Shown piece by piece: positions 19,946 to 55,910 of a stretch of 64,000 nucleotides of DNA (position 1 is its first letter; each line of letters begins with the position of its first letter). Source of the stretch: Psammoneis japonica (lineage: Eukaryota); contig QPGO01000051.1 of assembly GCA_008632985.1 (NCBI GenBank), positions 62,001 to 126,000 on the forward strand, read 5' to 3'. The position numbers and the translations under genes were made by a program. Under the pieces are notes generated by a model. It was not told where the DNA came from and searched no databases. It saw only the letters and a program-made list of their open reading frames with translations.

Positions 19946-20213
19946 AAATCCTTAGTAAACACGGAGAATGCGGCAAGGCTCCAGCAACCTCATCGAAGGA
20001 GAGTTTGTGGAAGTGCAGACCGATTGGATTGAAGTGTATGGTGCACTTTCGGAGGACAAGATCCGAGGACATCGCATGGCCACCAAGGAGCAGACAAATG
20101 GTGCTGTAAACCCACGGACGACGGTTTCGGTTTCCCAAATTTTGTTTGTACTGACTAGTCAAGGAGTCGTAGACACTAAGCTGTTCAGACAGGGAAGCGA
20201 CTCAACTAACTCA

Positions 20214-26376: not shown

Positions 26377-27584
26377 AGAGTGAATGATATACAGATGAGT
26401 GCTCTGTTCCTCTTGAAGGAGCGTGGATACTACTATTGCGCAGCGTGAGATTGATCCAGTAGTTCTTGAACGATTGGGAAATTATGGAGATATCAATGAT
26501 AATCCAAGGTATAATCAAATCCTTGTCTAGTCTCTCGATATTTGCTTTCTCCCTTGGGTTTCCCCACAGTATCTCGACGTCTCAACTCTTCAAGACATGT
26601 GACGCTCATTGAAAGTTGCGCACGGATATTGGTATGCATCGTCACAGACGCGAGTCATCAGGCTTTGTCTGCCATTCTAGGCCCTCCCGAGGGAGCAGTC
26701 AGACTCGTAGCCTCCATGTAAAGAGAGCGGCGACTTGCTAGAGGCTACAACACCGATTCAAGATTGGTGACGCCAACAAACAGAACCACAGAGCATCAAG
26801 ATTCAAGATATTCATTTACCAAGTAGCGTCGCCCACAAGAACGAAGCATCACATACAGGCGGTATAGCACAACTTCATCAAACGGGACCCATGCAAGTTT
26901 TTGAATTCGGTCGCAAAAGGAGATGCGTCGTTTCCTGTTACTCGACTTCCTCTACGGTAAAGACTCTGTTCTAGAGAGGAGAACTCCTCTACCAGTTTTG
27001 GAGGCAGCTAGAGAGAAAGAGAGAGAGCGCTCGCTAGCACTACACTCTAGGAGTAGTATTGTAGATTGGAGGGCTAGCGCGCTTCTGTTCAGAGTCAAGC
27101 AGGGATATTGTTGTGGCCTCGCTGTTCCTCCCCACTCGTAGCTAGAATAGAATCATGTTTGTATTCGTACTGCACGTTCCCAGAGCTACCATGAGAGCTG
27201 TACTGTACGGTGGATAGTTCCGATATACCTACCATCCAGTAGAGAAGTACAAACCGACAAACCGATAGAGTGAAGGGAACTTTTGCGGAAAAGTCGCAGG
27301 CTCAGACTAAAAGCAAACGGGTGGACCGAGCGACAAGTGCGTGGTAACCCATCAGCAACAACTATCGAGCGTGGACTAGAAATAGCAACTATGCGCTTGA
27401 ATCGATAACTACAAATTTGCCGCAGCGATTGAAATACAGCTAACTTGTTGTTACTTTGATAATAATACTAAATATAAGCTAACAATCACCGCAACAGCAA
27501 GGACGAGCTCGCGTGGAAATTTCTCTTGACACCAACTTGTCCCACAAGCAAGACAGCTTGGCATCAACTCTCATAGAATGCAAA

Positions 27585-28463
27585 TCAGTCTTTGTTCAAT
27601 GCCTTGATACAAGCTGTGGTAAACTTCTTGATAACTTGATGGTCAGGGAAGTTATACTTCGCTTCGGAAAGCACCGTCAAGGCCTTGCAAGCATTCGCCG
27701 CGTCAACAATCTTCTCCGTTTCCTTCTTGCTTGTCAAAAGTTGTCTGAGCAAATGGGAGCCAAGCCGTTGCATGTCCTCGTTGTTGACGAATCTCCTCAT
27801 GCTTTCAACAGCTAGTGGAATCAACCCAGCTTCAAACAATTCGACCTTAAAATCATCATCGTTGACTGCAAGATTTCCCAACACACCGCAAGCGCTGTCG
27901 TTGAATGCAAGATTTCCCAACACACCGCAAGCGCTGGAACAGCATTCACAGCGGTCAGCAAAGTTCTGCATGATCTTGACAATCGTGTCTGCCACCATTG
28001 GATGCTCACGAATAACCTTCTTGTGATTTTTATTATTGCAGGAAAGATTCATTAGAACGATAAGATTATCGTCAATGAACTCATGACGTTCCTTGTCTCC
28101 GACAGACTTCTCTACATTCTTCAGCATTACGATGTGTCCGCCTCCTTGGACAACTTTCAGACAATTTTCATTTGCGTAAGGGTTGCCATTGGGTTTGTCC
28201 TCATCCTCGTACGTTAAATCCTTTAGCTTGTAAGTAGCCTTTTCAACCGTTTCAGAGTCTTCGCTCCACAAATCATAACACACGAGCTGCTTAATCGAGC
28301 GCTCTTCTTCTTCTTCATCCGAGATTTCCTTGGATTTTTGCGCGTCGCCTCGACCTCCTTGTTCCTCAGCTTTGCGCTTACGATCGTTGGCACTCCTCAC
28401 TTCGTCGCGAGCGATGTCATCATTGTTGTTTGTGGCTGCTGCAGCGGTGGCTGAGGAGGACAT
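27585..28463 (-). CDS. Armadillo-like repeat protein (local family) with a 39 bp internal tandem duplication
   Basis: Intact ORF from the ATG at 28463. Contains SACGVLGNLAFND followed by SACGVLGNLAVND. Confidence 0.88.
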   Translation of the reverse strand: MSSSATAAAATNNNDDIARDEVRSANDRKRKAEEQGGRGDAQKSKEISDEEEEERSIKQLVCYDLWSEDSETVEKATYKLKDLTYEDEDKPNGNPYANENCLKVVQGGGHIVMLKNVEKSVGDKERHEFIDDNLIVLMNLSCNNKNHKKVIREHPMVADTIVKIMQNFADRCECCSSACGVLGNLAFNDSACGVLGNLAVNDDDFKVELFEAGLIPLAVESMRRFVNNEDMQRLGSHLLRQLLTSKKETEKIVDAANACKALTVLSEAKYNFPDHQVIKKFTTACIKALNKD

Positions 28464-29026
28464 GGTGTTCAAGGTTTTGTTGCAGAAGCCACCAATGCAA
28501 AAATGGTTTGCAGTTCTTGTGGGGAACCTTTGAGAGAATTTTGAGTGAAGACGAACGCGCTCGCCGGCTCATCGGCGCACTCAATTCAATCTCTCCTCCC
28601 TCGATCAGTCAGTTTTCAGTTTTGAGCAATCCCGACACGTCATAGCAAAAGCAGACCCATCTCTGGTCGGTGACAGTGCCTCCAAGATGCAAAAGACACG
28701 TTCATCGATGTGACGAAAAAAATTCCCGATTGATCGCGCACGTCTTTTCATCGCCACAATTTGCTCGCAAACCCGTCACTCTATTTGTGCTGCCTCTGCT
28801 ATGCCAAGCAGCCAATATCAAATAGGGCCCTATCTACTCTCTAGGCTAGAGACTCTCTATCTACTCTTAAAGAGCAGCGGCCCCCATTTCCAGGTAGAAG
28901 CAGGCCGCGTTGATAATGTTACCGGTATGTTGTGACATTGTAGTCGTCCGAGTCAATCTAGTCGACCGATTCGAAGCGTTGCACTTCTCACTTCATCAGC
29001 ACAAAAAGCAAAAAAGCGAAGGCACC

Positions 29027-31479: not shown

Positions 31480-32990
31480 TGTTGGATGTTGTGCGATGGA
31501 TTGTTGCGTCGCTTGCAGCAGGCAGGACGGACCAAAATGTGGCGCGTATTCATCGCACAGCAGCGGCGTCGCGTGCATGCACGGGTGTGCCTGTTCATGC
31601 TTTGACTCACGCTCACAAGTGCGGTCGCACACTGGAAGACATTGCAAAAGTCGGTTTTTATCCCATACATCAATGAAATGGCAACCAATTCTAACAAACG
31701 ACTTGAACATGAAGAAACACGACACTCTTAGTCCAAAAATGTCTCTCGTCCATCCAAAATGATTGGACTGGAGAAACCTGCTTTTGCTCACAACTGCCTC
31801 ACACAACAGAGAGATGACAAGCAACACTCCCGGGGAAAGAAAATCTCCTGCAATGGACATGTGTGTGATGGCTTGAGGGCAAATCTGATCAGTGGACTGC
31901 AGCATGTTCTGTGGCTAGAGAAAGTTCTGCAGGTGCTGGGGTTTCTTGGCGCATCATGTCCAACCTTGCCGCTGGCCAGAGCAAGAAGCAGCTTCATTTC
32001 TTCTCCATTTGTGCTGAACTTCTAGCACCTTGCACAGGATTGATCATGCTCAGATCACAGATGGGACTTTTGACTGTTGACTCCAAGGTCCAACAACATT
32101 GTTTGAGACCAGCCCCTTTTTTCAAATGGTGTGTTGCTCGCAAGAGCTGGTGCGCGCCGCCGGCTGCACGACCTCCTCACAGGAGACAGCAGGAGTGCCA
32201 TGGATCAAAACTGGAAAGTTGGGGCTCAAAAGGTGGCAGTGGCAAGGATGAAGCCAATGTCTCCAATGAGGAGGAGGACATTTCATCAGCTGCAAAACTT
32301 TGTGGTGGGGAGACCTGTGGACTGTGGAGCAGCCACCTCAGCAGCAATTGTTGACAATCAGAAGAAACAGTTTGATGAAGAATCCTTCACTTGGAAACAG
32401 AGACAAGAATGGTCTCCAGTGGGGCATGTCATTTTTAGGAAAACATCAAGAAGTTTCTTCATGCTGACTGTGGTGGTCATTGTTTCACACTGCACACTGC
32501 ACCTTGCCAGATGTCCATCCAAGCATGACTGACACTGTGGTCAGGGTCATCAAGCACTTTTCAGATAAAGTCAGTTGCTGCATGAGGGGGCAAATGGCTT
32601 TCTGGGGTTCCTTTTGTTTCAAATGATTCACCACAATTCTTGAATCAATGGCATTGGTGAAGTGTGCTTGGATTGAAGAACCCCCCGTTGGCCATCGAAT
32701 CTGTGCAAATTGACTTGCAGAAAGCACAGAGATCACAGAAATGCATGTGCAAGGTTTTTTGCTGCTGCTTGGCATGTGCTTTTGGACAGCAAGGTGAACA
32801 CAAAGAAGAACTTTAAAGCAGCTAAAGCTTGCAAAAGGTTCTGACGGTGGTGCAGGCTGCCTCTGTGGACAACTTTTTCCCGAGCATCTAGAGTTCACGA
32901 AAGTTTCCACTGAGTGCACAAGCTGTTGGCAACAACTGATTTGGTCACTGTCTGAAGCTCTCCGAATGTTTCAGAAGTTGAAGGAGAATG
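31480..32990. mobile_element. TpA-depleted domain with an unidentifiable repeat relic
   Basis: Very few TA, strong TG/CA excess and Cys/His-rich pseudo-ORFs. Confidence 0.45.
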
Positions 32991-34299: not shown

Positions 34300-37200
34300 A
34301 CGATGAGCGACAGTCATTGTCACTTTTTGTGTGCCGTTGTGTTGTGTCTGATGTTGGAGTGTTGGTGCGTGTTTCGCGCGCAAAAGCGAACCACATGCGC
34401 GGTACTCAAATCACGTAGGACTTTACGTGAAACAAGCAACCAACTTGACCCTATTTCACTCAATACCTTTTCTTGATGATCGAGTCGCTGGAGCATGCCG
34501 GCAGGACAGGATTGATAATGCGATTACATCCAAGTAGAGGAGCTGGCCTAAAACAAGCATTGAACACTGTGCACCATGCTTGAATCACACTCAACTTTCG
34601 TGATTGACTTCTTTAAAACATCGTCTCAGCCAGTTGCTGGACACACTTGGCGTTGGACACCATGTCTTTCGTCAACAACTTGTGTGTGAATGCAATCATC
34701 GCATGGTTTCATGTGAATGTAAATGCTGTGGGCAGAGGCTGGATGGCACTCTCTGGTGCTGCTTGCTCTGCCAGCTTCAGCCAGCTGCACGACATTGTGA
34801 CAGAGGTGGCGTTTGGAGCAACATTGCAGAAATGTCTTCTTTGTTGCCGCCACTCACATGAAAATTGAAATTGTTGTCACAAAAAAAATGTGTTTGTTGT
34901 GGCGATTGTTTTTTACAAGGACAAAGCCATTTGACGGTTGCAACACATCACACACCCCAGTGGATCCGTTGCTTGGATTCAAGAACAACAACGCACTGCC
35001 GCGCACCTTCTTGTCAAGTGCAGATGGCACCACGGCGTCAACGGCAATTTCTTCTGTCGATTTGTGTTTTTCACCAAAGAATGGCGATGAAGGAGGCAAG
35101 AACAGGAAACATTGCACTGGGCATTCAAAGCAAAAGAGCTGCCTCCGAGCGCCTCTGCTCGTGTGCACGCTGCAAAATGACAGAAATGATGGTTTCCTTC
35201 TCACAAAAACAACTTGCCGCAATGAAAACAACATTTTTTATGTTGACAATTTGAACTTTCATGTGAACAGTCACAACAAAAAAGATTTCTGCAAAATTGT
35301 GCATTTGGTGAATCACAGAATTGCTCGGCAACACACCATCATCATTTCTTTGGCCCTGCCGTGGCCCGTCTGCTGGCATCTCAGTGAGGAGACATCAGTG
35401 CACGAGGTGACCTGTGCATGCAAAGCATGCACGGTGCAGTTGATGCATGGACTCACAATTGAGAGTGTGGATGGTGTGGGGGGGGGGCACCATCAAAGAT
35501 GCTTCCCACCAATGTTGCTCAAGGCGACAACAGCTTGCTTGTTTCTTTGAAAGCACATTTTTGTGTCGATGTCACGAACTTCCATCCAAGATTGCAACCT
35601 GGGTTGCCTGCTGCATCAAACCATTTCTCAAGCAAGTCATGCAATTGCAGAACTGCCACAACCTCCACCAGGAAAAATGGAGCAGTCTGTCCATTGGTTT
35701 TTCTTGATTGATTGGCCTGTGATCTTCGTTGATCAACAGTCTTTTGATGCCACCAGAAATGGCCTGCTCGGCTCGAGCTTGTCTTCTCACTAAATTGTCA
35801 ACTTTGCCATTGAGAATGTTGAAGGCATTTGCATGGAATGTTGTTTGCAGGCTCTGGTGTGTTGCACCTGAATGTGCTGGGCCACACTGGGTGTGTGTGT
35901 GCCAACACAAGTGTCAAAAAGAGCAGAGAAAATTTTGCACATCCCAGGAAAAGGGCAAGGCACCAGGGGAAGATCTGGCACCAGAGCCCCTTCCATTTAT
36001 GATGACAATGGCACGTTGGTCATCAGCATTGACTTTGCATGGCCACTGATGGCAATGATGCATGGAGACCCTGAAATGACAGTGATGGAAGATGGTCGTT
36101 GACAGCAATGATGTGTGTGGAGAGACACCAAAATGACAGTGATGGAAGATTGGGCATGTGGGGCTCTGTCGCACATCATTGTGGACAAGAAATGGGATTT
36201 TTGAGTCAGGGCTCAAGCCCACAGCTTGAAGTGTGCAAGTCACAACCCCCCCCCCCCCCCCATTTCAAGAAACGAGAGGGTGCATGTGAGCTCTGTCCAG
36301 CACAAGCCCAAGAAGCAAGAGGCTCAGCCAGGACCCAGAGCAATTCTGAGTGCTTTCTGCAGGTGGAATTTCCAAATGATCCACGTGTGCAATGTCTGAA
36401 AGGATTGTTCCAAAAAACAGAGATTTGTCTCATGAACCCATCAGTTGCTCCAACGAGACAGAAGCTGGAGCCACCCTGAGAAAACCTCATTCTGTCTTGT
36501 GCAAAGTGCTTGCAAGATGGGGTTCCTGCAGGCAGGAGCATGAAGCATGAAATGACATTGCTGGAGCTCAATTTGTTGTTGTGCACATCAACTGAATTTT
36601 CGCACTCAAAGGGTCTGGATTGCACAGTTGAGATTAAAAAGCTGTTGAAAGAATGCAAAAAGGAGGATGATGCATCTTGCATGGAGGCTTTTGACCCTGA
36701 GATTTTTCTGCAGGGATCAGCTCTGGCAACAAACCCCAGGCTTTTCCTGCACAAAAAGGTTCAAATTTGGTCGAGACTGCTTGGTCAGTGCTCTGTTGTT
36801 GGGTGTGCCTTGGACATTTCTGAACACCATCTTTCAATGTCAAAGACAACTCCACCTTCTTCTGTGTTGTTGACTGCCAATTGGCTGAAGGTCAGCATGC
36901 CTTGGCACTTGGCTTGGATGTTTGTTTTGTCAATTGGAAGGGCAGAAAACCAGCCAATGTCAGAAATCTAAAGAACTTGAAATGTGACCCAGTCACTTGG
37001 GTGCTCCAAGAATGGCATTGTTGTGGTGAAGTCAACATCAAAAAGGCAAACACTCTGGCATTTTGTGCCATGTTGACTCAAACTTGGAACAAGCAGCTCA
37101 GGGAACACATTTGTGGCCCACCAGGACTGCCACGTGTGTGTCCCATGACATTCAATGCCCGGGCACCTAGTGGGCCACTTGTTGTGGGGCCAACACTGCC

Positions 37201-40165
37201 ATTGTTAGAAATGTTGGTTGCTGGGAATGCATTGCAGAGTCACTTGAGTGCATTGCAGAGGGAAATGAATGAAGTCATCTTCCTGGTGACAAAAATCAAG
37301 ACCCCATTTTTGATTTTGGTCGCTCTTTCCCAAAACATTCTTGAAGGCCTTGGCCACCACCACAGAACAAGCCAATGCAATGTGGTCAAGGGCGCCAATG
37401 GTTCATTTCAGCTGGCTCAAAAAAATGCCAGTGACAATTTTGCAGCACTTTTCTCATCATGTTTTTGAACAATGATGTGAGTTTCATGTGAACAATGCAA
37501 GTCTCAACAAAAGCCATTTTAGACATGTGCCACCTGTTGGCTTTCTTGATTTGCTGAGTTGCCTGCGGCATGATCGTTGCACTCATTGGATGCCAGGTTC
37601 TCCCAGTTGGGTTTTTGAGTCTGAGCTTCTTTTTTCAGCCTCAAGCTCACTGCATTTTGATGACATTTTTGCCTGCTTGAGATTGGCTTCATTTGGTGGT
37701 GGCTGTTCCCAGTTTCTTGATGGTCCAACAAGCTTTGCTGTGCTGTGCAAACTTTGAGTCACCACCAAGATTGTGGCTCTTTTCAGCACAACAGACAAAC
37801 GCAGGCGGGCTGGAGAGTGCACTTGATTTTTGTTTCATTTTGCCACCTTTGCAGTCACGCATGTTTCCTCTTCTGTTCTAAAATGTGGCTTTTGGAACAA
37901 AGTTGTCATTCTCAAACCTCATGACAGAGTCAATGTCCCTGAGGCAACCTGCTGCCAAGCAGCAGTGCTGAGCCTGGCACTTGCTCTTGCCGGGGAGGGG
38001 CTGGCAGGCAAGAAGGATCCATCACATGATTTGCCTGTGCCTGATGAAAGCCATGGCAAATGACCTCATCTCTCATGGCTTCTGCTGAAATAGAAACCAA
38101 TTGGCCAGTGAACAGATTTGCAAAAAGAGCACATCTTTGAAAAGAGCGACTTGCTCCTGTGCAGTTGGAAGTTGGTGGTGCAGGCTGATTGGTCACTCTG
38201 GCCCCAGCAACTGCACCAGCATCTTCATTGATGCCATGTTTCATTGCATGGCACATGGCATCCCTTTCAAAGGAGTCAGGGTTGAACTCCTCAAATTCCT
38301 TGTCCCAGTCCCTTGTTGCTGATGGCGCGTCAAATGATGAGCTCACACTTCTTTGTGACAGTGGACTGGGGCAAATTGTGGGGCCACATCGCCATCAGAG
38401 TCATTGGCATCGGTGGCGCTGGCCATGTCATCAACAACAAACAAGCACTTGAGTCATCTGACAAGTCCAAAAACAGCAACGCAATGCATGAAAATGCATC
38501 TCGTCATCATTGCTCCTTTGTGAAATCCACCTCTTTTGGAGCTCGGAGGGAGAGGTGAGGCTTCCCGCATTGATCAAGGGCTCGAGTCTCGTTGATCACC
38601 GCAGAGCCTCAGGCAGGCACCTGCACTGGAGACTTCATTGATCGGGGGCAGGCAGGGTGCCAGCGGGCGGGCTTTGCCAGCAGGCCTGTCAGCAATTTGA
38701 CACAAAAAAGGACCATCCAGTCACTCCAATCTTTAAAATCAGTGGCGCCACCAATTGCACAACGGCAATCATGCACTGCAGGTGCAATGAGTGTGGTTGC
38801 AAATGCAAGGCAAATGATGGCAAGCCACTGCTTGAGTTGCCAAAGCTTGTCGGACAGTTGCATCCCATGGACATTTGGTGCACATGGTTGCCAACTCCTC
38901 ATTTCACATGGACTTGACAACAACAAGATGCGCTAAACACGAGTTGAAAGAAAGCAGCAATGGTGATGCCATGTCAGCATGCTGCACCAACAACGTGGCC
39001 GAGCTTGCCTTGACATGGAGGAGCAACATTGTTTGAGGTGGATTGAAGCAGCAAAAAGTTCCACGATGCCCACACCAGTGTTTTCAGCTTTTGAGAAGTG
39101 GCTGGGTCACTGCGGACCAACAGGTCTTGAAGCGTGGTTCAATCGGCACAAGTGCTCTGCGTCTCCTGGAGCGGCAGACGCCGGTGGACGGTGCGATCCA
39201 GATTCTGGTGAGCCTCTCTTCATGGAAGACACCAAGCCGGTGGTGGAAAATGCAAAGGTGACAGCTTGTGGACTCGATGAGCCTTCACAATGTGGAGACT
39301 TGTGCAGAGTCGTCAAGCCTTCAAAATGGTCAAAGTGTGAGCTTGGCACGTGCATCACCACCGCCGGCACCAAATCCAAGCTTGAGAAGTTTCATCACAT
39401 CGTCAAGCATTTTGGAAACACCGGTTCCAGGAGTGCCTTCATAGATGCACTGTGTCTTGCTGGAACTTGTGAGTGCAACATTGCGGTGTGTCAGCATCTT
39501 CGAACAGATGAGATGACAGCGGACGAGCGCGCCAAGATTCCGCACGCCTTTCGTGGGGTTCCAATGTTTCTTAACCACAGCAGGCTCAATTGCAACAACA
39601 AGTTGTTGGAGAAAGCGAGAGTCAGTCATCCTGTGCATGAAAATGTTGAAGAATTGAAAGCAGACAATGGGGCAAGCGGTGTTTTTCAGCATGCACGAAA
39701 CAACTGGAAAGCTTGGGCGAGGAACTCGAAGCGAGAAAAGCAAAATTTGGCACAGCAGCGGTGAGCAGCAAGAACAACCCTGACAGATGCATGTGCAGCA
39801 AGTGTGGGACAAGAAAATGCAAAAGGAACTGTGAGTCACAACAGCCGATGCCGACGTGTGCTGAGGGGCCGAGCGTGAAAAAAAATGAAGTCCTCGTGTC
39901 TTCAAGATGTGGCAGTGCCGAGATGCGAACCACCCGTCCCTGATGCACCACACCCTGTGCCACATTGTGCACCGATTGCCATTGCTCCATTTTGGACCAG
40001 TTTTCCAACATATTTGCCGCCGTTGCAGATGGCGCCGAATCCGCAATCGCATCTGACCAACAAATTCTGTTGCTTCCGAGCAAGGGATTTTCATCTTTCA
40101 AAAACAAACTTGTTGGGGGTGGATGCTCGAGGAAGAGCACCACATGATGAAGAACATTGTTCATC
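34300..40165. mobile_element. Large TpA-depleted domain of nested transposon-like fossils
   Basis: About 5.9 kb with sparse TA. Includes a transposase-like remnant at 38979-39764. Confidence 0.6.
38979..39764 (+). pseudogene. DNA-transposase remnant (Dada/DUF6729-like C-terminal catalytic region, tentative)
   Basis: DPDSGEPLF...DLCRVV...CITTAGTKSKLEKFH resembles the D..G.PLF...LY...Y...RG.S.LE.FH pattern, with Tyr replaced by Cys. The 261 aa ORF contains no Tyr. Confidence 0.5.
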
Positions 40166-40584
40166 TAAGTAGCCTGTAAATGTAGATTCATTATTTGCAT
40201 TGTGATTCTAGCCAACGTTCCATCTCGAATTGGGACCAAGATGGAAGACGGGAAATGGGGGGCGATGGCGCATAAATAAAACCAACCATAGAAATCTTTT
40301 ATGCGCACCAGGCTCATGTGCTCTATCTTCAACTCCGCGACCTTCGTCTCCACTTCTTTCCTTGCTGCTTCCGTTTGCTCTCTTCCTTCCTTCTCTCTTG
40401 TTGCAGGAGCAGCAACGGGGTCGCTTCGCTCCCCCTCTCCCCCCCTCTTCTTCCGTCTGTACCCCCCTATTTTCCTAGCTAGAAGTAGTAGAGAGAGTAG
40501 AGACTACTGCAGAGGCACTTCTCCCAAAACCTCTCTGCGTTGTCGTTTTTTCCTCGTCAACAACAAACTTGCATCATCACCACT

Positions 40585-41946
40585 ATGGCTTCTTTGCATA
40601 TCGTGCCTTTCGAGGACTTTTTCGGTGAGCAAGGCCTCTCTACGGAGAACTTTAAAGACACTTCAGTGGAGGACTTTCGTGAGTTGTCTCGAACGCTCTC
40701 TGGTCCACTTCAGCACGCTTCCAACTGGCGAGCCTTTTGCGAAATCAAAAATAGTCTCATCGTCATTGACCGCAAGATGACGTGCCTCACTCAAGTCTGC
40801 GATGAAGCAGACTTACGTATGGAGGAACTTCTGGAATTGAAAACAAAAGAGTTCAGTTTTCTTGTTGTCAACATTCTCGGCCTCTCCGTGGTGGATTATC
40901 CTCCTCTGTTTCATCTCTACACGGAGGCACAAAAGCAAAAGAGTACAGACACCAACACCGCCTCTCTGGAACCTCTCATGGCTCCAAACAGCAGTGGTGG
41001 TACTGCTGCTGCCGATACGGTCACTGCCGATCCAGTTGTTCCTCAACAAGTGACCTACGGCAAGAAGCCGGCCCCTGCTCCTGGCATCCCTAAGAACGAG
41101 AGAAGAACTTCTGTTCCTGTGGTTTCATCTCCAGCCCCTCATACTTGTCCCATGCCCGCCCCTGTAGCCGTGACTCCGTCCGCCGCTGCAGTAGCCGCTC
41201 CCGACGAAGCGAGAGGTTCCAACGATCGTAAGCGCAAAGCCGAGGAGCAAGGAGGTCGAGAAGACGGGGAAGAGGAAGAGCGCTCGATTGGGCAGCTCGT
41301 TGGGGAAGACTTGTGGAGCGATGAATTTGAAACGGTTAAAAAGGCGACTGTGAAACTGGTTGAGCTAACTTCCCATGAGGATGACAACCCTGGTGTAGAA
41401 GCAAATTGCAAAAGAATTGTCGAAGCCTCCGGGCATCGTGCCGTGCTGGAGAATGTGAAGAAGTCTGTGGGCGAGAAGGAGCGTCATGAGTTCATTGAAA
41501 ATAATCTTTGCATTCTAATGGAGCTTTCCTACACTAGTGACAAGCGCGCGAAGATCATTCGCAATACTCCAAAAATCGTTGACACAATTGTCAAGATCAT
41601 GCAAACCTTTGCTGACCGAAGTGGATGCTGTGCCAGCGCTTGTGGTTTGTTGGGAAATCTTGCGGAAAAGGGTGCCGATTTCAAGGTCAAAGTGTTTGAA
41701 GCTGGGCTGGTCTCGTTAGCTGTTGAAAGCATGAAGAAGTTTGCCAACGATGAGTACATGCAATGGTTTGGCACCTTGTTCCTCGAACAACTTTTGAGAA
41801 GCAAGAAGAAGAAAAACAAGATTGTCGATGCAGCAAATGCGTGCAGGGCCGGGTCGGTGCTATTCGAAGCAAAGCACAACTTCCCTGATAATAAAGATGC
41901 CGTGAGGCATATCAAAGCCTGTATCAAGATATTGAACGAACGCTGA
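40585..41946 (+). CDS. Armadillo-like repeat protein (local family) with a unique N-terminal extension of about 200 aa
   Basis: Intact ORF. The family-homologous part starts near 41180 (AAVAAPDEARGSNDRKRKAEEQGG). Confidence 0.85.
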   Translation: MASLHIVPFEDFFGEQGLSTENFKDTSVEDFRELSRTLSGPLQHASNWRAFCEIKNSLIVIDRKMTCLTQVCDEADLRMEELLELKTKEFSFLVVNILGLSVVDYPPLFHLYTEAQKQKSTDTNTASLEPLMAPNSSGGTAAADTVTADPVVPQQVTYGKKPAPAPGIPKNERRTSVPVVSSPAPHTCPMPAPVAVTPSAAAVAAPDEARGSNDRKRKAEEQGGREDGEEEERSIGQLVGEDLWSDEFETVKKATVKLVELTSHEDDNPGVEANCKRIVEASGHRAVLENVKKSVGEKERHEFIENNLCILMELSYTSDKRAKIIRNTPKIVDTIVKIMQTFADRSGCCASACGLLGNLAEKGADFKVKVFEAGLVSLAVESMKKFANDEYMQWFGTLFLEQLLRSKKKKNKIVDAANACRAGSVLFEAKHNFPDNKDAVRHIKACIKILNER

Positions 41947-42199
41947 TTTGCATTCTGTGACAGTTGGAATGACCTTCTGTCTTCCGTCTGGGACAAGTTG
42001 GTGTCAAGAGAAACTTCCACGCGAGCTCATCCTTGCTGTTGTGGATGTTGAGCTTTATATTTAGTACCATTATCAAAGTGACGATGTCTTAGCTTTAGTT
42101 CAATTCCTACTGTAAATTAGCAGTGAACGATTCAAGTGTGCTGCAGCTGCTGCCTCTAGCGCTACATGTTCCGCGCTAGAGTGGTGTCTGGTGCTAATG

Positions 42200-45164
42200 G
42201 TGTAGCCCGGTGTCTCGTTTTACTACTTGGCAGAATGTTTCCTGGAGATCTCGTCCGCTGTTGACAACGCCAAACCGACAGAACTGGGAGATGACCGTTC
42301 CGCACCTTGAATTACGCAAGCAAGTCTTCCTGTATGTTGCTCCTGCCGTCCTCTCACCATTTAGAGAAGAGCAGCATTTCAATTTTCAACCCCCACAACC
42401 GTCCAGTCGATTTTAGCGAAATCATCAAGAGCATCCCAGATTGCGGTTTCTAATGCTTGGATCAACTTGAGAAGGCTGGCACTGTCATGTGAGAAAACTG
42501 AACTGGAGACCTCTTCATGCGCTTGGCAACAAGTCGCACTCAGGGAGCACTTTCTCCTTCTTTCCTTCCATTGCAAATGGGCCCCACATCACCTTTTCCT
42601 TTTACCTGCACCATGCCATGCTGTTCAAAAACAAAATCACCCCCTCCAGGACTTTTGCAACATGCTGCATCATCTGAATTCTCACCGGAACTTCCTGAAA
42701 CACACCCATTCCAGAGGCTGCACATGTGCAGATTGTCAACGAAACCCTTTTTGACAACTTCCCACCAGACTCAATTCTCAATTTGCTCCCTCTTGAGTCC
42801 TTGCCTGGTGGAGTCAGTCATGGTTGGCCTTCGTGCAACACACGTCAGCTGCGCAACAGCCAGCAGGCCAGCAGCAATGTGGCTTGCCTTTGTGGAGCTC
42901 CTGCAGCCTGCAGCCACTTGTGGACTCACAGCAGGAGTCATGTTCATGACAAGGTCAGTCAAGTGACAGACAGGTCCTGCTGATGGCAGGGTGTCATCTG
43001 GTGCACGTTGTGTGCATGTGCCAGCACACCTTCTCATGCACGTCAGAGTGCACAACATTGCAACATCTGCACACATGACAAAAATGTGTTGCTGTGTTAT
43101 AAAACCTGCTTGTCTGCACATGACAGTTTTTGTCATTTGGTCAATTGTCAATCTCCTGCCATTCTTCATGTTTGAACACAGATGTTTTTTTAGTTTTTGT
43201 GCTCTGCCTTTTTCACAACAACCGACGATCTTTAACGACAAGCCAAACATTGCAATTGCATGCAATGCAATTTTCATCATGCAAAGTGTGCACTGATTGT
43301 TTGGTCAATGACTGTGCTCCAATTTGCCCAGTCGTCCGCATCGTCCTCTTCATTCCATGTGTCTCATCCGCTCTCTTGCAAGAATTTCAAATGTGCCACT
43401 GCCGCGTTGGATGTTTCCTTGTCACCGTTCCAAAAAAGCCACACTGCATGTCTTGCATTTGGGTGAACATCATCAAGAGGAAAAGGTCCCTCGAAACGCC
43501 GAATCACATCGCTGCTCCCCTCTTGACATTGTGTCGTCGGCTTCTTTTTCTCTTTCTTCATTTCGCCTGTCCTGTTTTTCTCTTCCTTCTTCGTCTTGGT
43601 GCCGCCTGTTTTCACCGTCTCCGGCATCTTTCCATCTGAATCCTTCTTTTTCATTGATCCCGTCGCCATCGCCTTCATCATCTCTTGTTGTGTTTTTTTT
43701 TCTGTTGTGTGTCACTTTGTTTTGGATCCATGTTTCTGACTTCTCTCCATGCTGTCTCCATTTCCGAATGTTTCTTTGTGATTGTTCGTGTGCATCACTT
43801 GAAGGCACCCATGTGTTCTTCACGCACCTTGACGCGTGTGCAGAAATCCATGTTGTTTTCCAGTGCATGCACCCTTTCTCCTGATGCTGTTTTGCACAAT
43901 GTTTTCTTCCATCAACTCCACACTCCTCATTGCTCTTTCCCAGCATGATCTCATGTGGGATTTCCCTGGGAGAAGTTGCGCGCGCGTCTGGCAGGTTTTT
44001 GTGTTTAAAACTCCAAATCCCACCAGGCACACATGTGACTTCTCCCACACACCACTCTGGCACATTTCTACAGAAACCAGTTTTTGGTGTTGGAACAGCA
44101 ACCATGGTGCCATGTGACCTGTCGGTCGCCTCTCTGTTGCAAGACAACAACGATTCCTGCCTCGAGGAGGCCGCATTTGAATCTCTCTTTGCCAACGGTT
44201 TTGGAGTGATCGACAGCAACGAGCGGAGCCATGTCAAAGCAACAATCGAGACGGTGAAATCCAAGGTTCAGTTCCACCGCGACTCCACTTGTGACCCCTC
44301 TCCGAATTGGATCGCGCTTGCCTGTGTGTGGCAAAAGTCGAAGGGCAGACCTCATTTTTTTGTAGAACTGATGGCTGTGATCTGCGTTGTTGCAAAGGAA
44401 CTTGGGTGCAAGAGCTTGCTGCACTTTCTTTCCACAAAAGGATGGAGTCACTCCAGTCAAGGCGCCAAACGCATCAACTCTTTTCTCCTTGGCAGAACTG
44501 CACCAAGCTTGATGTTGCTGTTCCCAGTGTGCCTCTCAATGAAATCAACAATGCAATCATGCAATTCCAGGGGAGCACCACGTGTGTCCATGAGCTTCTT
44601 GCACAACTCCACGCAAGCTCCGTCAAGATTTGTCAAAGAGGGAGCAGAAGCCAAGGCCTCTTCTGCAGGAGTGTGATGCCTGATCCTCAAACGTTGATCC
44701 TCATCGTGAATGTCCTCTTCCTCCTCCATTGTCACGTCCAACACTGCAGCAAAGGATTGACCACCGCCAACATCCAAATCGTTCATTGCCAAAAGTTCAA
44801 CTCCATGCATGCTGTGGTTTGATGAAATGGAGGACATGTCGTCCATTCCGTGCAGTGCGTCATCCGGGGAGGGGAACAAGGGGCTGCTGCACGGATCACT
44901 CGTTGAAGATCTTGGGAATCTGCTGCAAGCAGATTGCCTTGGATGGGATTCGTCATCATCAGAGGATGAAGAGGAAGAGCTGCCACTTTCTTTGGGTGGC
45001 CCCTCTGTTGTGGCAGGAATGTTGCTTTGATCTGGGATTGGATCTTGGGTTTGCAACTCTTGGGCAACTGAGCAACACGTTGGTGAGTGTCTCCAATGGC
45101 AGGCTGTTCGCAAAAAACTTTTGCCACACCCGGGACAGAGAAGAGGGTTTCCGTCCATTGTCAA
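42200..45164 (-). mobile_element. Degenerate minus-strand coding fossil, transposon-like, with an N-terminal CxxC finger
   Basis: CPGCGKSF...H...C followed by ELCKKLMDTRGAPLELHDCIVDFIERH. Fragmented ORFs continue to about 42200. TA is depleted above about 42420. Confidence 0.4.
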
Positions 45165-45379
45165 TCAGACAACGTTGACAGGGCCTTCATCAAGACTCAT
45201 GCTCGTCATCCTTGTCTTGTGGATGAGAAAGGAAAAGAAGAACAACACGCAAAAAATGGCGGGAAATTGGCAAACATTGCATTGTCTTCCAGATTTGGAT
45301 GATTCTTGTGGGCATGACGTGTCTGCATTTTGATTTTTTATCTGGCATTTACGATGAACATTGCACTTTTCATTTGCCA

Positions 45380-47350
45380 TCAAAATGCAGGATGTTGTCT
45401 CCGTTGAAGCGCAATGACAGCCATGTCAAAAAGCAAGTTGGACTGTTCGTTGTTGTGTGTGAGTGCATTTTCAAATTTCAATGTTGCTGACAATGATTTG
45501 TGCAATGTCGTGGAGAAAAACAGAGTGGCTGGCTGTCTCAACACGACCCAAACAACGGCTGCACTGTTGAACAACAACACTCCTCTCACTGTTGCCATGA
45601 AAAGATCAAGATGTCGTCTCCAGCACCACCGGCAAAGAAGAGAAAGAAAAATGAGTGATGGCACCATGGCTTTCCTGTGCACACTCAAGCTGACTTCAAC
45701 ATTGTTTGACTCATTGGACACTGGTGCTCTGACAAGATCATGCTCTGCTGCTGAATCTTTCCTCCCAGATGCTTGCCAGCAGAGCCTGCACACTGACCCT
45801 CGGCAATGAAGCTTCCCTCCTTCATTGGGCATTTTGCTCACATGCTGCACTCCCACCCAAAATTGATGGCCCACCTTCAGATTTCCACCAAAGTGGACCA
45901 GCAGGAGCTGGCACCCATCTGCTGGCTCCATGGCTGTGAGTGGGTCTGGAGCTCAATCTCCACAAGCAGACCTCTGGAACCAAACCAGCTTGGCTCTGGG
46001 GATCCAGCTGTTGCTCTGTTTTCAAGGGGGCAACAGCCACTGCAGAGTGGGGAAGATGATGCAAAAACCTGTTGATCAGCTCAAGTCTGTCCAAACAGGT
46101 TTGATGTCTCTTGCACTTGCCACTTTGCTGGACCAGCTGATTGCTCACACCTTGGTGACTCAACTCTTGCTCATTCTCTTTGTGTGGCTGTTTGGCAAAA
46201 AAATGTGAAGAGTTGGACAGGAGCCAAAAGGATGCACTCCCACCCACCCTGGGAGCTGGCACTCACCTGCCAGAAATCTGGGATGGTCGCATGTGCATGC
46301 ACACCATCGCACAACTGAGCTGCTGTGCAGAGCAGGTTGTTTGTGCTTTTTGCCACTCATTGGAGTGACACAGAGACCATCAGTGACAAGCAAAAAATCC
46401 ACTTGATTTTTTGCATGAAATGGCAAAAATCTGATTTGCTCGCCCATCATGATCATGGCAGTTTTTGAGATTTTTGAGGGCACTTGTCCTGTCATCTCCA
46501 AAGTGGCAAATTGACTTGTGTTGGGTTGTGACTTGTTGCCATGGTTGAAAAAATGGCACCCTGCTCAGCTGTGCGTGCTTTTGGCTCCATGAGGCATGAG
46601 GCACTGCTGTGAACTTCTGAAGTCATGCTGCTGCTCATGCTGAAGTGCATTTGCACATCACACAGTTCCCAGTGGCAGCACAAATCAGAAATTTTGTGAC
46701 TGCATGCACTGTTGTGCCAGCTTCTTTTGCTTGTGCTGCAGCTGTGGCACTGAGTGCCGCCCACTGCTCTCTCACAAGAATGGAAAAATGCCCCCCCCCT
46801 CCTGGCTGTGCCCTGGGTGAGTTTGCCCCCTTTGTTTGCTCAATGGCTGCCTTTCTCTCAGCCACAATGGCCAAACAGTCTCTGGAGCCATGCAGAAGCA
46901 TTGCTTGACTGCACAGGACAGATTTGACAGTGCATCCTCTGAGCAGATGAGCTTGTCCAAAACAGGCATTGAGCCACTGTGCTGGGCCAACAGAAGAGTG
47001 CACATTCAACTTTTTTTGTGCACAAGCAAGTGATTCTTTCTTGAAATTGTGCTCTCAAGGGGCTTGACACACTTGGCAATGGAGGAGGCCATGTCTTTCA
47101 TCAGCTGTTCACAATGCATGAGAATCGCAGTCATTGCCTCAAGTCATGGTTGCATGAACAATGTGTGGCCAAAGGCTTGGCGGTGCTCTCTGCAGTGCCA
47201 TGCCATCAGGCCCCACCCTCTGTGTGCTCTCAACTGGCTGAACTGCAAAGCACATCTGTGACAGCTGCAAGCTGCAGTGACATGCAACCAAAGAGGAGAT
47301 TTGAACACAAAATTGAAAATGAAACAATGCAAGTGGCTGGCAGCACAGTT
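45380..47350. mobile_element. TpA- and CpG-depleted relic, unidentifiable
   Basis: I see no TA and few CG across about 2 kb. Confidence 0.4.
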
Positions 47351-47553
47351 GCTGATGTCAGAGATGAATCTGCTTTTGCTGTCATGTGTGGGTGTGGGGG
47401 TTGCTCAAAACTGGAGGGAGGCAAGAGATTGGAAAGTGCCCCAGCAACAGTGGTGAGTGTGTTTGTCTGCACCCAGAATTCTTTCAAAGATTCCCCATAA
47501 AACTGCAAACCATTTTTTGCACTTGCAGCTTTTGCAACAAAACTTTGCACACA

Positions 47554-48400
47554 ATGTCTTCCTTCATGGCCCCTGCAGCAGCCACAAACAACAATGACGA
47601 CATTGCTCTCAATGAAGCAAGGAGTGGCAATGATTGCAAATGCAAAGCTGAGGAACAAGGAGGTTGAGGTGATGTGGAGGAGGAACCCAAGGAAATCTCA
47701 GATGAAAAAGAAGAGCACTTGATTGAGGAGCTCCTGCTTGTGTGGGAGGACTTGCAAAGCAACAACTTTGAAACAGCTGCAAAGGCAACCACACAGCTGG
47801 TCAAACTAACTTCACATGACAATGACAATCCTGATGCAGAAGCAAATTGCAAAAGAGTTGTGGAAGCCTCCAGGCATGTTGCCGTGCTGAAGAAGGCAGA
47901 GAAGTCTCTTGGCCACAGGAGCCATCACAGGTTTGTTGGTGCAAATCTTTACAATCTCAAGCATCTTTCCTGCAAGAGTGACAAGTGCCAAAAGATTGTT
48001 CACCAGACCACTTCAAAGGTGGTGGGTGCAATTGTGAAGATCATCCAAAACTTTGCTGGTGGCCGCAGAGGATGCTGTGCGCCAGCGCGCTTGTTGTGCA
48101 TTGGGAAATCTTGCACTCAATGATCATGACCACAAGGTTAAATTGTTTGAAGCTGGGGGATTTCATTGGCTGTTGAAAACATGAAGAGATTTGCCAATGA
48201 TGAGGAAATGCAGCATGGCAGCTCCCATTTGCGCTCAAAGAACAGCTTTTGACAAGGAAGGGGGGAAACAACCAAAGAAGATTGCTGGTGCTGCAGATGC
48301 TTGCAAGGCCTTGACAGTGATGTCCAAAGTGAAGTGTGACTTCCCTGACTGTCAAGGCATCAAGAGGAAGACCACAGCTTGCATCAACACATTGAACGAC
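47554..48400 (+). pseudogene. Hypermutated pseudogene copy of the ARM-family gene (upstream region homologous from about 47355)
   Basis: Collinear with the 27585-28660 locus. CGA>TGA stop at 47665, frameshifts, and systematic TA>TG/CA and CG>TG/CA changes. Confidence 0.93.
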
Positions 48401-48685
48401 AACGGCATCTACAGCAGTGTGAAGCTGCTTTATTTAGCAAGACCTGTCCGCAGGCTTGTGAGTTTCCTACTGACGACAACAGACATGTTTCAGTTTCTAC
48501 GTAGATTCTACGTAGGCCGCCTTAATCCTACGTCATTGGTTGATTTCGATTGGCTCAACGACGCACCGCCGCACAAAATCACCACACTTCTATCTTGTTG
48601 TTGATGTTGCGTTGTTGCGGTTCTCATCCATTGATTTTGCATCGATTAGTGTATTAGCAACCACATCAACCCTCACTAAAGTATA

Positions 48686-50830: not shown

Positions 50831-51049
50831 ACCGCACGCACCTATGGTATGCATGATGCGATCGATAGATGGATATATAGATGCAAGCAAGAAACGTGAG
50901 GAGAGAGCTATTACTGCTAGAGAAGTAGCCTTAGCTTTTGAGCACCACCTGAAATGAGCTTGGCCGGTGTTGCGCACTGCGCACCCACGCGGCGCGCATC
51001 TCGCATTGCATATATGTTGATGGTTTTTGTCATTTTTGGACTTGCCACG

Positions 51050-51897
51050 ATGTCCTCCTCCGCCGCTGCAGTAGCCACAAACAACAATGATGACGTCGCT
51101 CCCGACGAAGTGAGGAGTGCCAATGATCGCAAGCGTAAAGCTGAGGAACAAGGAGGTCGAGGCGACGTGGAGGAGGAATCCAATAAAATCTCGGATGAAG
51201 AAGAAGAAGAGCGCTCGATCGAGGAGCTTGTGTGGGAGGACTTGTGGAGCGAAGACTTCGAAACGGTTGAAAAGGCGACCAACAAACTGTGGAAACTGAC
51301 TGTCAAAGATGACAACCGCGATGACATAGAAGCCAATTGCAAAAGAGTTGTGGAAGCCTCCGGGCATGTTGTCATGCTCAAGAATGTAGAGACATCTGTG
51401 GGCGACAAGGAACGTCAAAATCTTATTCGCACCACTCTTGGCATTCTAATGAGTCTATCCTACAAAAGTGACAAGAACAGGAAGATCATTCGCAAGACTC
51501 CAAAGGTGGTGGATACGATCATCAAGATCCTCCGAAACTTTGCTGACCACTGTGGATGCTTTGCCCGCGCTTTTGGTGTGTTGGGAAATCTTCCATTCAA
51601 CGATGATGATTTTAAGGTCAAATTGCTTGAAGCTGGGGTGATTCCGTTAGCTGCTGAAGGCATGAAGAGATTTGCTGATGATGAGTTTATGCAAGAAGTT
51701 GGCTCCGATTGTCTTGCCACCCTTTTGACAAGCAAGAAGGAAACGAAGAAGATTGTCGACGCAGCGAATCTTGCAAGGCATTGACGGTGCTATCCGAAAC
51801 AAAGTATAACTTCCCTAACAACCAGGACATTAAGGAGAGCACCGTAGCTTGTTTCAAGGTATTGATCGAACACTTATTTGCATTCTATGAGAGATGA
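51050..51897 (+). CDS. Armadillo-like repeat protein (local family); 1-nt frameshift near 51769
   Basis: Homologous to 55911-56735. The C-terminus CKALTVLSETKYNFP continues in another frame. Confidence 0.8.
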
Positions 51898-51899
51898 TG

Positions 51900-52590
51900 C
51901 CAAGCTGTCCCATGTCTGGGACCAGTTGTTGCCAAAAGAAACTTCCACGCGAGCTCGTCCTTGCTGTTGTGGTGGTTCTTAGCTTTTATTCAGTGTTGTT
52001 ATCAAAGTAACAGCCTGTTGGCTTTGTTTCAATTGCTTCGACAAATTTGGAGTGAACGATTCAAACGTATTTGCTTTTTCTAGTCCACGCTAGATGGTTG
52101 TTGCTCATGGAATAAAACGTACTTGTCGGCCGGTCTACCCGTTTGCTTTATCAGCAGAAGCTCCCTTCTATTCTCTCCATTGGTTTGTCGATTTATGCTT
52201 ATCTACTGGACAGGTGTGACGGAACGCCCACTGTACAGTGCAGCTCTAGGATGTGGTGACAACCAATGGGAGGGTCGTTGTTTCCTTGTCAGGGAAGAGG
52301 AGCACCTAGACGAGGTAGACTTTTACAAGCCAGGAGGAAATTCCTATCGCGTTGATGCGGTTGACAATCACATTCAATTTAGGGTCGATGGAGTGCAAAC
52401 CGTTAATGTATTTGAACCGGAAATGGGAACGAGAATTGGTGAGCAGATAATAGACCACCGCGGAATCGGAGTCACGATAATGCGGGAACATACCGTTCGG
52501 CTCAGAAACTTTTTGTGCACGCCTCTGAAACTATGTTTCCAGAATAAAACAGGTTGACTCATCAGCACACTCCGTAGTAACGAATTCTAT
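51900..52590 (+). repeat. 3' flank co-duplicated with ARM genes (copies at about 56736-57385, 27240-27584 inverted, 41947-42190 and 53756-53872)
   Basis: All copies share gaaaYttccacgcRagctcRtccttgctgttg. The longer copies also share ctacccgtttgcttta, and ggaggaaattcctatcgcgt is common to 52332 and 57108. Confidence 0.9.
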
Positions 52591-52599
52591 GTAGCCGCA

Positions 52600-53755
52600 G
52601 ATGGAGATGGGCTATTTCATAGCAGGATTGACGACTCGCATTGTCTACCGGCTGGTCATAATGGCGCACCTATTGTCGATGGTGTTCAAATGAGACTCTA
52701 CAAATGCGACAAGAACAAATTGAGTCAGAAGTGGGAGTGGCACGAAGGATTCGAGGCTCCCATTTTCCTCACGAGCAACCCAAACTTGCACCTAGAAAAA
52801 TCGAGGAGTGGACGAGTACAACGCATGACAGCTTTTACCACGAAATGTTCCATTCAATCTTTACACCCGCACCACCCGTGTCGAAACTCATTTCAGAAAG
52901 CATGGCAAGCCTGGGGTTAAAGCCGGGCGAGTATGCAGCAGCTCATCTCCGTGCCTTGTATGCCCCAGCAGAACGCTCAGAGAAAGAAACTGCCGAGTTT
53001 GCCATTAATGCCGTCAACTGCGCTTCCCCGTTTGCGTCCGGGTGGTCCTATCTACTTTGCTTCGGATTCAAAACACGCGGTTGAAATCGTCTCGATTGAG
53101 CAGCTTGTTTGGGAAGACTTGTGGAGCGACGACTTCGAATCGGTTAAAAAGCGACTGAAAACCTGAGTCAACCTACCTACCAAGATGATGACAATCCTGA
53201 TGTAGAAGAAAATTGCAAAAGAGTTGTCGAAGCCTGCGGGCATGCTTTCATGCTGAAGAATGTAGAGAAGTCTGTGGGAGACACAAGGAACGTCTTAAGT
53301 TCATTCAAGCAAATCTTTTCATTCTAACGAATCTTTCCTACACGAGTGACCAGCGCAGGGAGATCATTCGCAAGATTCCAAAGGTTGTTGACACGATATT
53401 CAAGACAGCGCAAGCCTTTGCTGATCACTGTGGATGCTGTACCCACGCTTGTGGTGTGTTGGGAAATCTTGCATTTAACGATGACGGCTTTAAGGTCAAA
53501 TTGTTGGAAGCTGGGGTGATTCCGTTAACTGTTGAAAGCATGAAGAGCTTCGCCAACGACAACATCATGCAACGGCGTGGCTCCTGTTTGCTCAGACATC
53601 TTTTGAAAAGCAAGAAATACACGAAGAAGTTTTTCGATGGGGCGAATGCTAGCAAGGCCCTAACGGTGCTGTCCGAAGCAAAGTATAAATTCCCTGATGA
53701 TCAATGTGTCAAGGTGCTTACCACAGCGTGTATCAAGATATTGAACGAACACTGA
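52600..53755 (+). pseudogene. Chimeric relic: ricin-B-lectin-like fragment, glycosyltransferase-like fragment and 5'-truncated ARM copy
   Basis: HCLPAG...DGVQMRLYKCDKNKLSQKWEW, then GEYAAAHLRALY...AINAVNCAS.LRPGGPIYFASDS running directly into SIEQLVWEDLWSDDFE. Confidence 0.65.
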
Positions 53756-54382
53756 TTTGGCATTCTGTGACAGGTGGATGCCAAGCTGTTATGCGTCTGG
53801 GACAATAGTTGGTGTCAAGAGAAACTTCCACGCAAGCTCGTCCTTGCTGTTGTGGTGATTGTTAGCTTACATTGATGTGGTTGAGATGTGATAGTGTCCG
53901 CCGCGTTGGAAGTAGAGACTCTAGAGAGCGAAATATAAGTACGGTAGTACACGTCATATTGAGCAGGATTTAACTTGCGCTGTAACAGCTGTCGTCTATG
54001 TGCAAGCGACGATACAAGGAAGAGATGAATATCATGTTACCGCGACGAAGGACTTTCCGAGACACCGACACTATTATTTGCATCGTGCGGATTCCTTTCG
54101 TTTCTTTAAGCGCAGCAGCAGAACTCTGTAGCTAGATGCCGAGGTACATTTAGCCGGGTATCTCTACCTGTATCTTTTTGAGGATTTTCTCAACGCCAAC
54201 ATGGACAACAAAGTAGTACCTGGAGAGGAGGCAGACAAGTACAACGAATACAAGAAGGCGTGAAAGAAGGGGGGCGTGAATGCCTTTTCAGTCTATACTC
54301 AATACGATAGTCTCTTGCATTATACCCGCATTTGTACTAAAACTGGTACAGTAGCTCGTAGTTTCTGCGATGAAACTGCATG

Positions 54383-55444: not shown

Positions 55445-55910
55445 CTGGTAACTATGGTCCTCTGTTCTAGCTAGCAGAGCATACTATTAGAATACGTTGC
55501 TCTTATTTCACCGCCGTTGTACTCATGCGGCTTCGTTGTCTCTGCAAGTGGTACTTGAGACCAGAGGCTCAATGCTCAATGCGGCTCATGGCCTCATGGC
55601 TCATGCTGGCCTCATGTGGCTCATCGGTGTCTGTTTGGAGCTAGCTTTTGGCGAGCTTTGGAGCTTGAAGCGGTGCGCGGTGCACGCGCTTCACCCACCA
55701 ACGCACGCATGACGGACCTTAGATAGAGGAGCGCGCGCGCGCGCGCGAGCGAGAGAGCATGTCTGTACGGTACTTCTATGTACAGTAGAAGTACGTGCGT
55801 AGCGTACGTGCGTACCGGCACCTCAACTCTAAAGCTTGAGCGCCTTACCGGCATAGGACGTATGCATCGTCTTTTTTATTTTTTCTCTTTATCATTGTCA
55901 TCGTGCCACG

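Follow-up and report, generated by a model that had tools for sequence, protein, structure and literature searches.

In ascomycete fungi, repeat-induced point mutation (RIP) changes C to T at CpA and makes TpA in repeats. For hypermutation specific for TpA itself, the only description so far is a 2026 preprint on integrated giant-virus and virophage DNA of Bigelowiella natans (Mettrop et al., bioRxiv 10.64898/2026.01.13.699255). A word search of the main text of this preprint found no rule for the bases flanking TpA, and a full-text literature search found neither a description of TpA loss in diatoms nor a flank rule for TpA hypermutation. For diatoms, the available text of another report describes CpG decay in methylated transposon islands (PMC9998398). 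Here, we analyzed 64,000 nucleotides of the diatom Psammoneis japonica (GenBank assembly GCA_008632985.1, contig QPGO01000051.1, positions 62,001 to 126,000; this whole 64-kb stretch is called the window), which contain five sharply bounded TA-poor domains. The few TAs left in these domains are mostly followed by an A-run (TAAA, or TTTA on the other strand), and we propose that they are a steady-state read-out of the flank preference of a TpA-erasing process.

As far as it is described in the main text of the preprint, the B. natans system resembles the domains of P. japonica in several respects. The mutations are almost only TpA>TpG and TpA>CpA (here 11/13 and 6/7 of the ancestral TA sites of an ARM-repeat pseudogene, according to two definitions given below); they stay within local stretches of DNA that is foreign or repeat-like, with the rest of the genome normal (here an intact ARM-repeat gene sits between two domains); and the genome holds TpA-poor clusters rich in CpA and TpG. 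The differences concern the host, a chlorarachniophyte there and a diatom here, and the state and content of the domains: those of P. japonica are near saturation (TA observed/expected ~0.03) and also CpG-poor, and they contain copies of host genes as well as repeats in which no viral or transposon gene could be recognised. The B. natans system is further marked by an elevated de novo rate in mutation-accumulation lines.

TA-poor domains and the flanks of their leftover TAs

The domains were called with a two-state model on TA density across the window, which is gene-dense with a G+C content of ~48%. They total 16,764 bases and contain 48 TAs and 340 CGs (Table 1). In per-kb bins of the domains, the observed/expected ratio is 0.00–0.10 for TA, 0.07–0.70 for CG and 1.5–1.9 for TG/CA, compared to 0.34–0.73 for TA and near 1 for CG in the window outside them. 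Not a single TA lies between 45350 and 47498, within the rightmost domain. TG and CA are balanced in 34/35 bins of 500 bases, which indicates that both strands were hit equally.

The sequence TAAA/TTTA accounts for 29/48 of the leftover in-domain TAs, compared to 264/1802 of the TAs outside the domains (odds ratio 8.9, Fisher p=1.2e-12), so the contexts of the leftover sites do not follow background frequencies. The initial annotation had stated such a majority for region 34600–48200, and the complete count bears it out (21/31 in-domain TAs); however, the sites it listed by eye omitted the 10/31 in-domain TAs that do not fit. Its statement that the five TAs in 18600–19950 are all TAAA is correct, and the tttaaaa that it placed at 34613 is present, with its TA at 34614, although this lies one base outside the called domain edge. 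The bias was seen in 5/5 domains (Table 1), and it was robust to trimming of the domain edges, with 26/39 TAs in TAAA/TTTA after removal of 200 bases from each edge and 21/32 after removal of 400 bases. Of the TAs in the normal sequence that separates the two large domains (40166–42451), only 14/75 are of this type.

The contigs of run X1 were compared with the window, and showed 0 differences over 34600–36260, 36247–37102, 37353–38029, 38268–39178, 40852–43087 and 45626–48400. Consensus slips can therefore be dismissed as the origin of the leftover TAs there, and assembly error near homopolymers was rejected for the stretches that X1 covers without differences, although run X1 is possibly the read data of the assembly itself.

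Table 1. Positions of TA-poor domains, gene copies and reference genes in the window.
Feature	Position	Strand	Details
TA-poor domain, cut by window edge	1–1746		7 TAs, 2 TAAA/TTTA
TA-poor domain	17520–19944		6 TAs, 4 TAAA/TTTA
Small TA-poor domain	31730–32813		4 TAs, 2 TAAA/TTTA
TA-poor domain	34615–40165		5551 bases, 17 TAs (11 TAAA/TTTA), 127 CGs
TA-poor domain	42452–48409		5958 bases, 14 TAs (10 TAAA/TTTA), 112 CGs
High-copy repeat in domain 42452–48409	42898–45663		contig depth 6000–15400 vs ~35 in flanks; 9 TAs, 6 TAAA/TTTA
Hypermutated single-copy ARM-repeat host gene copy (pseudogene)	47359–48399	+	found by self-comparison; gives ancestral TA, CG, TG and CA states
Leftover TA, ggtTAaat	48139–48140	+	paralogs CA in 4/5, CG in 1/5
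Intact ARM-repeat paralog between two domains	40501–41943	+	normal TA content; family match stretch 41196–42136
Intact ARM-repeat paralog	27194–28467	-	unmutated reference
Intact ARM-repeat paralogs	51043–52599, 53091–53882, 55904–57383		unmutated references
Two tandem hypermutated copies of a pseudouridine-synthase gene fragment	17383–17822, 17815–18392		in domain 17520–19944
Source pseudouridine-synthase gene	23367–23938		unmutated
Two tandem 225-base copies, 92.6% alike	2146–2600	+	in short TA-poor stretch
Haem-peroxidase-like fragment	213–545	-	PF03098, E=1.5e-9; in domain 1–1746

Range, polarity and specificity of the flank preference

For each two-base 3' context inside the domains, a pool-normalised TA share, TA/(TA+TG+CA), was calculated over both strands. 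This share is 5.4% for TAAA (32/596 half-sites; confidence interval 3.7–7.5%), compared to 0.54% for the six TAY contexts that remain when TACG and TATA are excluded (19/3540, p=1.8e-15), and only 2/923 for TACC and TACT together. TAAA also differs from TAAG and TAAT taken together (p=2e-9). Even if every TGAA and CAAA is taken as a former TAAA, the retention is still 5.4%, and a flank-blind loss of 97–99% therefore cannot explain the counts. Two further contexts were found above the rest: TAGA (14/440, 3.2%, against 13/1185 for TAGB, p=0.007) and, marginally, TAAC (8/489, 1.6%, p=0.07). The earlier view that a TA abutting an A-tract is resistant thus captures a strong effect of TAAA, but the A-tract is too simple a description, as TAGA and perhaps TAAC are enriched as well.

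The effect is polar. In contrast to the 32/596 half-sites of TAAA, TATT retains 2/555 (p=7.7e-8), and a T-run 3' of TA gives no protection (0/353 at length 2). In the nearest-neighbour model TAAA and TATT are of similar duplex stability, so easier melting of A+T-rich DNA is not the explanation of their difference. When the retention is expressed relative to the sequence outside the domains, TAAA stands at 0.30 and most other contexts at 0.01–0.04. With a 3' A-run of 0, 1, 2 or 3 bases it is 0.04, 0.06, 0.23 and 0.36, respectively, and the flank effect resides in positions +1 to +3, with a weak remainder at +4 and none at +5. For the other bases at +1, the retention is 0.076 (G), 0.026 (C) and 0.031 (T). 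It also grows with the number of sides that carry a resistant flank (the AA/GA/AC set), from 0.014 with none to 0.125 with one and 0.62 with two; TAs with two resistant sides do not differ significantly from those outside the domains (13/165 vs 50/396, p=0.11). The CA:TG ratio inside versus outside the domains, which is confounded by CpG decay and ancestral composition, is 1.18 for context AA, 1.30 for GA, 1.38 for GG and 1.27 for GT.

The loss of CpG in the same domains served as a control. Its in/out ratio is 0.32–0.43 whichever base stands 5' of the CG, and among the CG contexts retention is lowest for CGAA; the absence of an A-run effect on CpG loss means that A-runs are no general shield of DNA against mutation. 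If TA were created irrespective of context from in-domain CA, TG, AA, TT, GA or TC, 13–22% would be TAAA/TTTA, against the 60% seen (p<=1.7e-8). Outside the domains, AA is not favoured after TA (18% vs 20.5% overall). The flank rule thus fits a sequence-reading process, not compositional drift. The initial annotation had likewise argued from context dependence to an enzymatic process rather than GC-biased drift, and in this it is supported by a preference that is polar, from which CpG is exempt, and that exceeds context-free creation (at most 22% vs 60%); its description of the leftover sites as survivors and its named enzymes fared less well, as shown below.

Ancestral states in the ARM-repeat pseudogene

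The ancestral states of the TAs in one single-copy part of the domains were obtained by alignment of the ARM-repeat pseudogene with five intact paralogs. A TA column was defined as one with TA in at least three paralogs, and a strict consensus was used separately. Of the 13 columns with such a TA majority, 6 read CA in the pseudogene, 5 TG, 2 another dinucleotide and 0 TA. At the strict-consensus TA sites (n=7), CA was found in 4, TG in 2 and TC in 1. Strict-consensus CG sites have become TG or CA in 26/29 cases, and A>G after A was observed at only 2/59 sites. The intact paralogs, 70–78% alike, were untouched by the process, as was the ARM-repeat gene lying between two domains, which indicates that the targeting follows the domain and not mere sequence similarity.

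Not a single one of the 13 ancestral TA columns was kept, and the leftover TAs of the pseudogene are not simply survivors as the initial annotation had assumed. Judged from the paralogs, the TA at 48139 is a site re-made in TAAA context and not a survivor, because the paralogs have CA (four) or CG (one) there. The TA at 47950 was probably newly made as well, while that at 47807, where 2/5 paralogs have TA, may be a true survivor.

Traces of TA turnover were also found at TG and CA sites. At the strict-consensus sites of the pseudogene, TG>CA double changes occur at 5/56 (47618, 47755, 48099, 48219 and 48438) and CA>TG changes at 1/33 (48330). These TG<->CA double changes, 6/89 TG/CA sites in total, are far above the expectation for independent single changes, and are best read as TA intermediates that arose by an ordinary transition and were later erased on the other strand.

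Proposed explanation and its alternatives

An account of the domains has to accommodate the flank bias with its polarity, range and specificity for TA, together with the erasure at ancestral TAs and the re-made TA. We propose that the domains are islands associated with repeats, on which two long-running processes would act at the DNA level. One would be ordinary, flank-independent CpG decay. The other would be a TpA-specific A:T-to-G:C change by which TA becomes TG or CA, with both strands affected alike. It would read about three bases beside the TpA, would be most efficient before a pyrimidine (TAC, TAT), and at least 10-fold less efficient per side before an A-run (TAAA) or GA, with TAAC as a marginal member; equivalently, a T-run before the T would protect on the other strand. 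Ordinary transitions would re-make TA from CA and TG; most contexts would lose the re-made TAs again, and those with slow erasure would accumulate them. The leftover TAs would then comprise true survivors and re-made sites, the TA share of each context being set by the ratio of the two rates.

Since the leftover TAs are not simply survivors, the flank rule describes a steady state. TA density is flat (1.5–3.3 per kb) across segments with 6–32 CGs per kb, as a steady state predicts, and because TAs are both erased and re-made, the leftover ones can be read as the balance of transitions and the eraser. Of the tandem 225-base copies, the first has TA at 2148 (tgTAaaaa) and 2300, where the second has TG at both, so TAAA sites appear slowed and not immune. 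Slow erasure, biased re-creation, or both could in principle underlie the rule. We assign a probability of roughly 0.6 to the reading in which the leftover TAs are a steady-state read-out of the flank preference of the TpA eraser, with slow erasure causing the bias.

Several observations weigh against this reading. The counts are all from a single 64-kb window and 48 in-domain TAs, and the baseline outside the domains is gene-rich DNA. A TAAA site was converted in one of the 225-base tandem copies, and the TA intermediate at 48330 was erased in the context aagTAaag. Among the 13 ancestral TA columns, just one or two were in TTTA context, and both were converted, a number too small to test contexts separately. 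The clearest case among leftover TAs of known ancestry, at 48139, arose by C>T at CAAA, which biased re-creation would yield too. Finally, strand-independent protection predicts a multiplicative and biased re-creation an additive gradation with the number of resistant sides, and the observed gradation falls between the two and separates neither model.

The most serious competitor, which we consider improbable though not negligible, combines a flank-blind eraser with new TAs that arise by a C>T change favouring CAAA/TTTG (seen as G>A on the opposite strand), possibly via deamination of cytosines methylated outside CpG. The CAAA origin of the TA at 48139 speaks for it, as do the possible CA or TG origin of the TAs at 47498 and 47950, the near-additive step from one to two resistant sides (~2–3.4 fold) and the complete loss of the 13 ancestral TAs in the ARM-repeat pseudogene. 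However, it needs a C>T rate at CAAA that is 10–25 times that of other CA contexts (5.4% vs 0.2–0.8% of the pools), an excess unseen outside the domains, where TAAA is without enrichment; the loss of CpG shows no flank preference; the available text of PMC9998398 describes methylation outside CG as scarce in diatoms; and an active flank-blind eraser would erase the new TAs as well. For the required excess, its absence outside the domains, the scarcity of such methylation and the fate of new TAs, slow erasure is favoured over biased re-creation. A flank preference could also reside in repair, if the TpA lesion or mismatch formed irrespective of flanks and was restored more efficiently beside A-runs. 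Such repair would leave the same net pattern as a flank-reading mutator, and the counts by context, side and range fit it equally, but it needs the extra assumption of a polar, three-base repair preference, and we regard it as a rather unlikely cause.

Selection for function and editing of RNA have far less in their favour. TAAA/TTTA might be kept as TATA-like or polyadenylation-like signals of active repeats, and the several-hundred-copy repeat 42898–45663 does retain tgttataaaa at 43098–43100; yet the bias is equal in single-copy, evidently dead DNA (4/4 in 34615–35982 and 3/4 in 45664–48409, which includes the ARM-repeat pseudogene), the motifs are scattered over both strands at 1.5–3.3 per kb, and no coding potential was found in the frames of the domains, which makes selection very improbable. 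The already disfavoured alternative of RNA-level editing, in which retroelement transcripts hyperedited by an ADAR-like enzyme would be copied back to DNA, is slightly less probable still. Its appeal is that T/U 5' of the edited A is the preferred neighbour of ADAR, as stated in the main text of the preprint (bioRxiv 10.64898/2026.01.13.699255). Editing of double-stranded RNA by ADAR needs a retro-copied unit, however, and was rejected: the depletion continues unbroken through the host-gene pseudogene, the gene fragments and single-copy DNA. The two strands are equally affected, G at +1 makes a TA less prone to loss than C or T does, and no reverse transcriptase was found in a Pfam search of 149 + 96 open frames. 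In addition, copies differ by TG vs CA or TA at the same place, which shows that the changes arose after the copies had separated.

Comparison with known mutators

RIP resembles the process in the domains in that dinucleotide-specific transitions ruin repeated DNA in place while nearby genes stay intact. It differs in its direction, as TpA is lost here and TG/CA gained, and in its targets, which here include single-copy stretches and leave intact paralogs untouched at 70–78% likeness. RIP was therefore rejected, given a TpA deficit, not an excess, in the domains.

ADAR and polymerase eta, which the initial annotation had proposed for comparison along with TadA, share with the domains A>G changes and a preference for T/U before the A; deaminases of the ADAT2/TadA type likewise produce A>G. 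The WA signature of polymerase eta comprises A>G at both TA and AA, and AA is not depleted here: the in/out ratio is 1.20 for AAA/TTT and 1.01 for AAG/CTT, and A>G after A is rare in the pseudogene. ADAR prefers G as the 3' neighbour and U least, whereas the in/out ratio for CTA/TAG is 0.09, compared to 0.03 for TAC and TAT, the opposite order. Neither enzyme thus matches. The natural loop context of TadA is UACG, and TACG retains TA at 3/121 half-sites, with a wide interval of 0.5–7%. Amphioxus ADAT2, which according to the available text of PMC10354150 prefers GAA for A and TCG for C, was also rejected as a model, the in/out ratio being 0.83 for GAA/TTC and 0.32 for TCG, similar to that of ACG (0.34), CCG (0.37) and GCG (0.43).

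The CpG decay described for methylated transposon islands of diatoms in the same text of PMC9998398 has its counterpart in the CG>TG/CA loss of these domains, which is independent of flanks (NCG in/out 0.32–0.43). It is separate from the TpA process and less complete (0.32–0.43 for CG vs 0.03–0.16 for TA trinucleotides), and has no A-run effect. Judged from the base changes, this loss behaves as a decay of the 5-methylcytosine-deamination type irrespective of flank, and the methylation itself is putative.

By analogy with B. natans, for which an adenine deaminase has been proposed, we infer that the agent of the TpA process would be a DNA-acting enzyme. Deamination of A and modification of T (e.g. 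hydroxylation) are indistinguishable here: TA>TG and TA>CA are mirror images, so the changed base (A or T) is not decidable from the counts.

Copy number and identity of the domain DNA

Copy classes were derived from summed contig depth in one sample, with ~35 taken as single copy. Regions 34600–35500 and 45664–48400 have depths of ~32–40 and are single copy, a state that holds from the former to ~35980, while the depth of 35983–40592 is 60–450 (~2–12 copies). The repeat 42898–45663 amounts to several hundred copy-equivalents. The domain DNA is thus partly a very abundant repeat and partly adjoining single-copy DNA, including the ARM-repeat pseudogene. No Pfam transposon or viral domain was found among 149 frames of at least 110 residues and 96 frames of 55–109 residues. 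The frame at 43476–44267 (-) of the high-copy repeat had no protein homologue at near lengths, and a 24-base word of this repeat gave 0 matches in a metagenome scan.

Over 13.8 kb, X1 has 112–114 variant places with a share of at least 10%. Of the 114, a listed set of 40 are mostly CG/TG and TG/CA differences, which do not resolve ancestry. Independent depletion of hundreds of copies would give ~200 TG/CA split places in the repeat 42898–45663 alone. Going by the total and by these 40 of 114 variant places, the family may have been amplified or homogenised after becoming TA-poor. In the moderately repeated region 39434–39849, the other copies differ from the window mainly by CG vs TG/CA and by paired TG vs CA, and the TG of the window at 39706 corresponds to TA (actAgaa) in another copy.

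Other gene fragments and duplications in the TA-poor DNA

The two copies of the pseudouridine-synthase gene fragment carry TA>TG/CA and CG>TG/CA changes, some common to both and others different (CA vs TG). They add ~12 ancestral TAs, one of which was kept (17681, gagTAgtt); these are too few for per-context rates. The haem-peroxidase-like fragment is a further piece of a host-type gene caught in a TA-poor domain. The 225-base copies lie in a short TA-poor stretch (1992–2650, 4 TAs in ~620 bases) that was not picked up by the two-state model. Two in-domain regions are pyrimidine-rich on the + strand: 43452–43951, with 200 T and 144 C in 500 bases, and 19520–19944, with 152 C and 152 T in 425 bases.

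Implications of the flank rule

New here are the normalisation to the TA+TG+CA pool, the controls for polarity and for CpG, the evidence of a re-made TA and the footprints of double changes. The flank rule gives an otherwise anonymous bias a biochemical signature. Deaminases or enzymes that modify thymine become testable as candidates on TACT vs TAAA substrates, and the published list of 231 de novo Bigelowiella mutations can be re-read for the same deficit. More speculatively, a DNA-acting enzyme with the extended motif "TA not before AA or GA", read per strand, might drive a heterochromatin-directed "reverse-RIP" defence shared by diatoms and rhizarians, which repeat families could outrun by becoming TA-free, as the family of 42898–45663 may have done; we regard this wider scenario as tentative. 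Saturated domains elsewhere would be recognisable by their leftover motifs. Under the proposed steady state, the TA content of a domain is a dynamic balance, which matters for the dating and modelling of such islands.

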